IMG/VR virus record: IMGVR_UViG_2690316156_000013
Span: 1-4,465 of that record
Length of the DNA stretch: 4,465 nucleotides
From: a virus
Taxonomy: Duplodnaviria > Heunggongvirae > Uroviricota > Caudoviricetes
Direction: 5' to 3' (one strand)
Shown here: one piece after another, positions 1,946-2,454 of the stretch
Layout: the number at the start of each line of letters is the position of its first letter
Numbering within the stretch: the first letter of the stretch is position 1
Position numbers and translations under genes: made by a program
Notes under the pieces: generated by a model
Told to the model about the DNA's origin: nothing
Databases searched by the model: none
What the model saw: the letters and a program-made list of their open reading frames with translations, nothing else

Positions 1946-2374
1946 ATGACCACTATTACCAATAAGAAACAGTATCCCAGCGAGCAATATCTTAATGAGC
2001 TGATCACCAACATAGAGTTTGCTGCAAGGGCACCAGTTGAAGTCGTGAGAGCAATGGCAGCAGAGCTACAGAAGCGGCGCGAAGCTGATAGTGCAGAACC
2101 TGTAAGCCAAACTTACAGGTTGCCACAAACGCAGTTTGAACAGGTTGCTGACCTCTACGAAATGCAATTTGATGACGGACGCACTTGCGCCTTTCACACT
2201 GATGCACAAAAGGCTGCGCAATGGCTTCAGGCATGCGACGGAAACAGGGTTCAGGAATACGTGAAACTGGAGCGACTGCAGAACGCGCTATCGGACAACT
2301 ATCCGGTAACTCCGGATGGTTGGATAAGCTGTAGTGATCGAATGCCGGACGACAGGCAGGAGGTGAATCAATGA
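1946..2374 (+). CDS. hypothetical phage protein (142 aa); C-terminus ends in a GWISCSDRMP motif resembling the start of a DUF551 domain
   Basis: ATG 1946 is preceded by AAAGGAGAG (1934-1942) at good spacing and follows the ea22 stop by 1 nt. The track start at 1865 would overlap ea22 by 80 nt with no Shine-Dalgarno sequence. The DUF551 resemblance is from memory of its W-I-x-x-x-D-R-L-P motif and is unverified. Confidence 0.6.
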   Translation: MTTITNKKQYPSEQYLNELITNIEFAARAPVEVVRAMAAELQKRREADSAEPVSQTYRLPQTQFEQVADLYEMQFDDGRTCAFHTDAQKAAQWLQACDGNRVQEYVKLERLQNALSDNYPVTPDGWISCSDRMPDDRQEVNQ

Positions 2375-2454
2375 GCTGGCCTGATGCAATCGTAACTCTG
2401 GGGGTGGTATTCGCAGCAGCGTTTGTTGTGTTCTCGATTTGTCGATGGGGATAA
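2371..2454 (+). CDS. candidate 27-aa hydrophobic (single predicted TM helix) micro-protein, not in ORF track
   Basis: ATG 2371-2373 overlaps the upstream stop (TGA 2372-2374) as ATGA, and the ORF ends at TAA 2452-2454, 4 nt before the next ATG (2459). Translation is MSWPDAIVTLGVVFAAAFVVFSICRWG, with a roughly 20-residue hydrophobic stretch. It exactly fills the gap between two genes. Confidence 0.3.
   Translation: MSWPDAIVTLGVVFAAAFVVFSICRWG

Follow-up and report, generated by a model that had tools for sequence, protein, structure and literature searches.

A portable 27-codon gene predicted to encode a single-helix membrane peptide in phages of Escherichia, Shigella and Salmonella

The stretch of Caudoviricetes DNA analyzed here (IMG/VR record IMGVR_UViG_2690316156_000013, positions 1 to 4,465; 4,465 nucleotides (nt), hereafter the window) is the early-left arm of a lambdoid prophage, in which all genes lie on the + strand and are packed tightly. 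Between a gene of 142 amino acids (aa) and a DUF4222 gene, it holds a hydrophobic open reading frame (ORF) of 27 codons, hereafter the micro-ORF. An earlier note, made from the sequence alone, had described this ORF as unannotated, joined to the upstream gene by an ATGA overlap, separated by 4 nt from the ATG at 2459 and encoding one hydrophobic helix, and the ORF, the overlap and the gap were all present as described. The features on which the analysis centers are the following.

2371-2454, + strand: micro-ORF, 27 codons, encoding MSWPDAIVTLGVVFAAAFVVFSICRWG, with conserved length, start and stop
2358-2364, + strand: Shine-Dalgarno (SD) sequence AGGAGGT, within the last codons (QEVNQ and the stop) of the 142-aa gene and 7 nt from the ATG
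2371-2374, + strand: ATGA start/stop overlap with the 142-aa gene (translational coupling)
2386-2442, + strand: transmembrane (TM) helix predicted from hydropathy, residues 6-24
1946-2374, + strand: 142-aa gene upstream of the micro-ORF, providing the coupling stop and holding the SD; vestigial DUF551
2459-2701, + strand: DUF4222 gene, 80 aa, 4 nt past the micro-ORF stop and one of many alternative 3' neighbors

The ATG of the micro-ORF (2371-2373) overlaps the TGA of the 142-aa gene (2372-2374), and its TAA stop (2452-2454) is followed by CCAC and then by the ATG of the DUF4222 gene. The perfect SD was a feature absent from the earlier note. When codons 2-27 were shuffled with dinucleotide frequencies preserved, 39% of the shuffles remained open and 4.4% were both open and TM-like, so the case from this single sequence is weak and only mildly unusual; comparison with other sequences, as judged from the homologues below, places the micro-ORF far beyond chance. 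The RNA fold of the region was not unusual (z-score +0.54), neither promoter-like nor terminator-like sites were found on either strand between 1800 and 3200 (the promoter scan being a simple consensus only), and no Rfam family matched anywhere in the window. With no Rfam family, promoter, terminator or significant fold, a reading of the region as an RNA element was rejected.

A tblastn search of the peptide against phage genomes returned full-length matches in 70 records, at 52-100% identity. Phages 933W, ArgO145 and Av-05 and a phage record labeled Actinobacillus, whose sequence matches E. coli phages, each had a 27-codon ORF with its ATG overlapping the stop of the preceding gene, and the flanking genes on both sides varied among them. 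The ATG of the 933W copy is at 58909 of NC_000924, on the complement strand. Two independent DNA seeds, N-terminal (first 18 nt) and C-terminal (codons 20-26), were scanned over IMG/VR. The N-terminal seed matched at least 120 viral contigs; among the matches listed, the ORF had exactly 27 codons in 109 of 120 and in-frame deletions to 24 or 25 codons in 3 more, and an SD-like motif was found 4-16 nt 5' of the start in 119 of 120. The C-terminal seed gave 133 matches, with ATGA exactly 57 nt upstream in 123 and GTGA in 3, and the same stop position in approximately 128. A gapped pattern, searched in one genome per bacterial species, recovered 8 true members, all with 27 codons, from Escherichia, Shigella and two tiny contaminant-like contigs; as a negative control, none of 29 chance pattern matches in other phyla formed such an ORF. 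Conservation across related phages, the check by which the earlier note would have discarded the gene, was thus observed for the reading frame.

Two very short contigs from non-enterobacterial assemblies, of Xanthomonas pisi (431 bp) and Acinetobacter idrijaensis (369 bp), bore the micro-ORF and its SD in the form of E. coli-phage alleles, and most likely represent assembly contamination.

The pattern of substitutions was analyzed in 44 distinct sequences. For codons outside the seed, the ratio of nonsynonymous to synonymous differences (pN/pS) was 0.39 in frame, and the other two sense frames gave 0.89 and 1.49 and were closed in 44/44 sequences. Entropy by codon position was 0.42/0.31/0.83 over the 13 codons touched by neither seed (Mann-Whitney, p = 3e-5), and both TAA and TGA were in use as the stop codon. 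The window allele differed from a second allele class at 25-38% of nucleotides (DNA identity 62-75%), with a pS of 0.45-0.69, which is near saturation, and a pN of 0.19-0.32. Such a substitution pattern indicates that the micro-ORF is under purifying selection at the amino-acid level, and together with the conserved frame it argues that 2371-2454 is a real protein-coding gene for a 27-residue peptide.

The mean Kyte-Doolittle hydropathy of residues 6-24 of the window peptide was 2.63 over 19 residues, and the best 19-residue mean ranged from 1.85 to 2.63 across alleles (TM threshold, 1.6). Hydropathy and frame conservation thus bore out the earlier description of an operon-coupled coding micro-ORF with a single hydrophobic helix. 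Per-position conservation was derived from 44 distinct peptides, in which the seeds partly determine positions 1-6 and 20-26 and leave positions 7-19 unbiased. M1, W3, A6, G11, A15, A17, S22, I23, C24 and W26 were invariant or nearly so, position 5 was always D or E, position 21 was Y or F and position 25 was almost always R, giving the family consensus M[ST]WP[DE]A-x4-G-(hydrophobic, Ala-rich)-[YF]S[IV]CRW[GRW]. The helix is flanked by the nearly invariant W3 and the acidic residue 5 on one side, and by R25 and the invariant W26 on the other. Small residues form stripes at i, i+4 and i+11 (G11/A15/S22 and A13/A17/C24), which suggests tight helix-helix packing, and an N-out/C-in topology is predicted by the positive-inside rule from the acidic N-tip and the basic C-tip. 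A lipoprotein or Sec signal peptide was rejected, since the n-region is not basic but acidic (D/E5, no K/R) and F-S-I-C departs from the lipobox [LVI][ASTVI][GAS]C.

In complete E. coli genomes, a 101-nt unit containing the micro-ORF was found by blastn in at least 999 of 5,426, in 1-4 copies each, with 150 copies on plasmids. Identity among the matches listed was bimodal, at 95% or more in 182 records and 60-80% in 842. A tblastn search identified 181 carrier plasmids (155 from Escherichia, 25 from Salmonella and 1 from Klebsiella), most of which are non-mobilizable IncY/P1-like replicons of 90-110 kb. Carriers include 933W and other Shiga toxin (Stx) phages, P1-like phage-plasmids and the virulent Vequintavirinae phage Av-05, and the micro-ORF represents a family, not described before, that belongs to phages of Escherichia, Shigella and Salmonella.

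The description of the micro-ORF as unannotated also held, since its 82-84 nt were left as a gap in every RefSeq, GenBank and PLSDB record inspected, and the 84 nt were likewise uncalled in the gene calls of four contigs bearing an identical 142-aa gene. A few older NCBI records do contain one allele, as a "hypothetical/bacteriophage protein" of 27 aa. The peptide had no match among Pfam, NCBIfam, PHROG and PADLOC models or PDB sequences. A protein query concatenated from three alleles returned only 8 proteins, all fusions or read-throughs, as gene callers drop ORFs shorter than 30 aa. The finding is more solid than the earlier note could have known: the micro-ORF is a widespread, conserved and essentially unannotated micro-gene.

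Several database entries touch on the peptide. Fusions to an N-terminal fragment of the upstream gene were 44-45 aa (E. coli and E. albertii) or 114 aa (E. coli) long, and natural variants reading through the micro-ORF stop measured 51-53 aa. NCBI lists a piece of the frame from the end of a contig (GGESMTWPEAF...) as "DUF551 domain-containing protein, partial"; this DUF551 (PF04448) label was rejected as a mis-assignment, the peptide having no Pfam match. DUF551 proteins of 121 aa that clustered with the 27-aa peptide were likewise set aside as a clustering artefact rather than fusions, as they do not contain the peptide.

Judged from its contexts, the micro-ORF is a portable unit of approximately 100 nt comprising the SD, the ATG, 27 codons and the stop. 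The cassette is found at the 3' ends of early or accessory genes of diverse kinds, whose stop codon it overlaps, and at least five unrelated upstream gene ends were distinguished.

Full DUF551 domain, ending in HWMPLPEPPQEVNQ and the stop
Vestigial DUF551 (the window), ending in RMPDDRQEVNQ and the stop
Zn-ribbon/coiled-coil protein in 933W, ending in IEQKVNQ and the stop
A family ending in LISVEDILR and the stop
Winged "eaa" protein of P1-like plasmids, ending in RLEVR and the stop, with the overlap TAATGA

The C-terminal codons shared by upstream proteins are explained by their encoding the ribosome-binding region of the micro-ORF (GGAGGTGAATCAATGA or GGAGGATATTTTACGATGA). The block GGAGGTGAATCAATGA (2355-2374 in the window, with equivalents elsewhere) was observed as a recurrent mosaic junction behind unrelated upstream proteins; because it carries the SD and the start, QEVNQ or KVNQ ends are imposed on these proteins. 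In the CPS-53 prophage of E. coli K-12, the DUF551 gene yfdS is not followed by a homologue of the micro-ORF.

On the 3' side, 38 distinct contexts were counted. The next gene begins immediately past the stop in three unrelated ones, namely the DUF4222 gene at +4 and two others at 2 nt; an unrelated gene of 77-80 aa is among those at 2 nt, and its first in-frame start codon lies 7 nt before the end of the stop. Further contexts include a gene of Av-05, the hok/sok locus at +153 and several different intrinsic terminators. In Escherichia phage vB_EcoS-613R10 (L217 1501-1584), the micro-ORF lies in the replication/nin region, outside exo-xis, where it ends a rightward block after DnaC-like and LygF genes and faces a KilA-N gene on the opposite strand, showing that the cassette moves between genome regions. 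The 38 contexts exclude a role as leader peptide or relay that depends on one particular downstream gene, and a regulatory leader peptide or upstream ORF was rejected for want of conserved downstream linkage, terminators being among the contexts.

"Small membrane effector" in a general sense, which the earlier note had offered as a heading for more specific proposals, is the best reading of the peptide. In the form we favor with moderate confidence, the micro-ORF would be expressed early, in coupling with the upstream gene, as a single-pass peptide of the inner membrane that acts either by self-association or by helix-helix contacts with a membrane protein of host or phage. The micro-ORF would lie within the early-left (pL, exo-to-xis) transcript, and it would be translated by ribosomes ending the upstream gene or recruited directly by the strong SD, so that the peptide would be made upon infection or induction and not in the repressed lysogen. 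As a chain of 27 residues is shorter than the ribosome exit tunnel, the peptide would be released whole and then inserted post-translationally, a route known from YohP of E. coli. The Arg-bearing C-tip would lie on the cytoplasmic side of the membrane and the acidic N-tip on the periplasmic side, and the two Trp residues, W3 and W26, 23 positions apart, would be placed at the two membrane interfaces. By binding a membrane protein of host or phage, or by self-associating, the peptide would serve as an accessory factor of host manipulation.

This proposal places the micro-ORF beside the small membrane regulators of bacteria, such as YohP (27 aa), KdpF (29), MgtS (31), CydX (37), AcrZ (49) and MgtR/PmrR (approximately 30). 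The size class, the single hydrophobic helix with interfacial aromatic or charged ends and the under-annotation are shared, and post-translational insertion and action through helix-helix contacts are probably shared as well. A single TM helix within at most 50 aa and a conserved sequence were both found, which places the micro-ORF in this class in the functional and not the homologous sense. It differs from these regulators in having no sequence similarity to them, in being phage-borne, in traveling between genomes as an SD-plus-ORF cassette and in always being stop-start coupled to an upstream gene.

A number of observations weigh against the proposal. The constraint on the micro-ORF is moderate rather than strong, and damage was seen in approximately 5-10% of copies, in the form of W3R, truncation, read-through or a fusion with the upstream gene. 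Conservation along the helix showed no clean 100-degree periodicity and no single conserved face. A crude sum on the Hessa scale ran from -1.9 kcal/mol (window) to +1.6 kcal/mol (933W), so that membrane insertion appears plausible but not guaranteed, the sum being near or above zero in some alleles. The taxonomic range is narrow, no partner candidate emerged from the gene neighborhoods of the 38 downstream contexts, and the peptide strings were not found in the searchable literature or in supplementary data of two small-ORF surveys (Sakai small genes and the Enterobacteriaceae microproteome). Finally, one antisense frame had a pN/pS of 0.37 and was open in 44/44 sequences. An open antisense frame of low pN/pS is, however, expected on the complement of a hydrophobic ORF; the frame had no ATG in 52 of 67 contexts, its ends were variable, and the 30-codon antisense ORF of the window itself had its start in only 27 of 67 contexts, which identifies the sense ORF as the conserved unit.

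Antisense coding was rejected on the same grounds of unconserved starts and variable ends. A 126-codon antisense ORF spans the micro-ORF region of the window (2288-2668, - strand), and the GenBank record of Stx2 phage II annotates an analogous 250-aa antisense "ORF C38" (L216 101-850, - strand); as antisense frames without conserved starts, both are probably spurious.

The alternative that survives best, although we consider it unlikely, is a toxic peptide that depolarizes the membrane or forms pores in the manner of TisB, DinQ, Ibs or Hok, or a Kil-like early killer, which would shut off the host or arrest its growth after induction. The micro-ORF shares its length, its hydrophobicity and its single TM helix with the type I toxins TisB, DinQ, IbsC, ShoB and Hok/Gef (DinQ and TisB have 27-29 aa), and its small-residue stripes are compatible with oligomeric bundles. 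As inferred from gene order, the operon is silent in the lysogen, so a toxin would be tolerated there and an antitoxin would not be needed; in Stx phages, moreover, the micro-ORF often adjoins hok/sok, lying approximately 150 nt upstream of that locus. On the other hand, hok/sok adjacency accounts for 1 of the 38 downstream contexts, the micro-ORF is also carried on P1-like plasmids, and it sits in a polycistronic early operon without an antisense RNA or antisense promoter, a promoter of its own, a structured leader or an Rfam match. The peptide has no homology to Hok/Gef or any toxin model, and searches of Pfam, NCBIfam and PHROG gave no match to the Hok/Gef family or to the early division inhibitors lambda Kil, Rac KilR and DicB, Kil-like inhibitors being another proposal of the earlier note. 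The type I toxin proposal of the earlier note was not supported by the architecture of the window, where the ORF is SD- and ATGA-coupled within an operon and neither a promoter-like site on either strand, an Rfam match nor a significant fold was detected. As to its proposal of a superinfection-exclusion peptide, PADLOC, PHROGs and Pfam gave no match to exclusion proteins (SieA/SieB, Imm/Sp, Cor/Llp and HK97 gp15) or defense models, and an exclusion gene would be expected to be expressed from the prophage in the lysogen (own promoter or moron architecture), whereas the micro-ORF of the window lies, without promoter or terminator, in the repressed early-left operon. In some other phages a terminator follows the micro-ORF; a dedicated promoter there was not examined.

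A more specific variant of the favored reading, which we regard as rather improbable, is that the SD and the 27-codon mini-gene spread horizontally as a unit encoding a dedicated TM inhibitor of one host inner-membrane protein. Possible targets would be an effector of abortive infection or exclusion that is bound to the membrane, or a component of division or transport. The hosts of the cassette are temperate lambdoid phages, P1-like phage-plasmids and virulent Vequintavirinae, and it is attached to the 3' ends of unrelated early genes. If true, this would represent a new class of phage anti-host or anti-defense micro-protein.

Two further explanations we hold to be very improbable, and to a similar degree. 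In the first, the peptide would serve the upstream Eaa/DUF551-type protein as a partner or as a detachable anchor in the membrane, joined to it in a complex or by an occasional frameshift fusion. Coupling to an upstream gene is indeed found in every case, and that gene is most commonly of the Eaa/YfdT-like or DUF551 type; in-frame fusions with upstream fragments occur naturally in E. coli and E. albertii, and in Av-05 the micro-ORF appears to have moved as one with an Eaa-like gene. The upstream proteins are, however, heterogeneous (full DUF551, vestigial DUF551, the Zn-ribbon/coiled-coil protein of 933W and the winged "eaa" protein of P1-like plasmids) and have in common only the codons that encode the SD of the micro-ORF; no slippery sequence was seen, although none was searched for.

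In the second, the micro-ORF would be a translational relay that carries ribosomes over the 84-nt gap to the downstream gene, with the peptide itself irrelevant. The tight packing in the window (ATGA overlap on the 5' side, 4 nt on the 3' side) and the three contexts with the next gene directly past the stop (4, 2 and 2 nt) fit such a role, and the TGGGG in codons 26-27 might also serve the following gene as its SD. A relay would not need 27 codons of conserved TM helix, however, and amino acids, length and hydrophobicity have been kept while synonymous sites are near saturation; the ORF has also been kept ahead of terminators, of hok/sok 153 nt away and of opposite-strand genes.

The weakest explanation, to which we give hardly any credence, is a DNA "linker" or module boundary that promotes homologous recombination among mosaic phages with an incidental open frame: the micro-ORF does lie exactly at mosaic junctions, with unrelated modules abutting on both sides, and within an allele class its DNA is at least 99% identical in many genomes, but between classes the DNA is only 62-75% identical while start, stop, length and residue classes are kept, third codon positions are the most variable and indels are in frame, a conservation as protein and not as DNA that argues against a linker.

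The exo-xis genes of lambdoid phages (orf61, orf63, orf60a, orf73, ea22 and ea8.5) share the location of the micro-ORF and presumably its early pL transcript. They are accessory and non-essential, and they affect host physiology and the lysis-lysogeny decision (PMC10834534, PMC8614690). Their products are soluble and 55-182 aa long, in contrast to the micro-ORF, and published catalogues of the region include no transmembrane micro-ORF: the word "transmembrane" occurs 0 times in a 2021 review of the exo-xis proteins of lambda, Phi24B and 933W (PMC8614690), and the conserved cassette in a 2024 paper on Ea22 comprises only orf61, orf63, orf60a, orf73 and ea22 (PMC10834534). Lambda was not among the records that tblastn matched to the micro-ORF.

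The products of the exo-xis/ea region influence prophage induction and, through it, the release of Shiga toxin, and the micro-ORF supplies a member that had been missing from this region. At least 18% of complete E. coli genomes carry the gene, as do the Stx reference phage 933W, Stx2 phages related to it and P1-like phage-plasmids, yet it is unannotated. It is not categorically new, because small TM peptides of phages and bacteria are a known kind and missed small ORFs a known annotation gap; the family is nevertheless undescribed, has an unusual cassette-like mobility and occurs in medically relevant Stx phages. It provides a clean, testable example of the small-membrane-protein "dark matter" of phages, with two deep allele classes and with a W3-to-stop change that would touch neither neighboring gene.

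The other genes of the window were identified as follows, all on the + strand.

1-210, + strand: exo C-terminus
201-389, + strand: orf61
362-553, + strand: orf63
550-633, + strand: micro-ORF1, the first 27-codon hydrophobic ORF, encoding MTTTECIFLAAGFIFCVLMLADMGLVQ
630-845, + strand: orf60a-like gene
944-1165, + strand: orf73, Zn-finger
1162-1944, + strand: Ead/Ea22 protein, 260 aa
2705-2851, + strand: 48-aa gene
2860-3096, + strand: DUF1233 excisionase
3152-4465, + strand: tyrosine integrase

Micro-ORF1 resembles the micro-ORF in its length of 27 codons, its hydrophobicity, its place in the same operon and its conservation among phages, and it is ATGA-coupled on both sides. The two are unrelated in sequence, and micro-ORF1 is fixed between orf63 and orf60a and is present in lambda, where it is 100% identical (J02459 30928-31008, complement; between orf63 and orf60a/DUF1382). 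It was found in 176 phage records, all at 90% identity or more except for one weak partial match; being almost invariant, it does not allow selection to be measured as for the micro-ORF. The earlier note had argued that two ORFs of the same length, coupled in the same way, were unlikely to be coincidence. This argument is weak, because micro-ORF1 is a separate, non-homologous family and the shared length of 27 codons is uninformative. The exact sequence of micro-ORF1 has been deposited as a 27-aa hypothetical protein in some NCBI records.

Three viral contigs (L018, L073 and L096) carry TM ORFs of 28-30 codons that start with M[ST]WP[DE]A, at positions 6098 of L018 (reverse complement, - strand), 9443 of L073 and 1273 of L096. 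These ORFs are stop-start coupled to a long upstream gene, but their C-termini and flanks are unrelated; for L018 and L073, the two tested, nothing in the phage collection matched the flanks. These ORFs are either chance matches to the seed or, possibly, distant relatives.

In the 142-aa protein, only positions 1-16 of the 68 in the DUF551 profile were matched, by residues 125-140. Compared with full DUF551 proteins, the domain core appears to have been deleted, with ...GWISCSDRMP joined to ...QEVNQ and the stop. An identical 142-aa gene, followed by the same 3' genes, was found in E. coli draft genomes, integrated beside DUF72/MAPEG genes.

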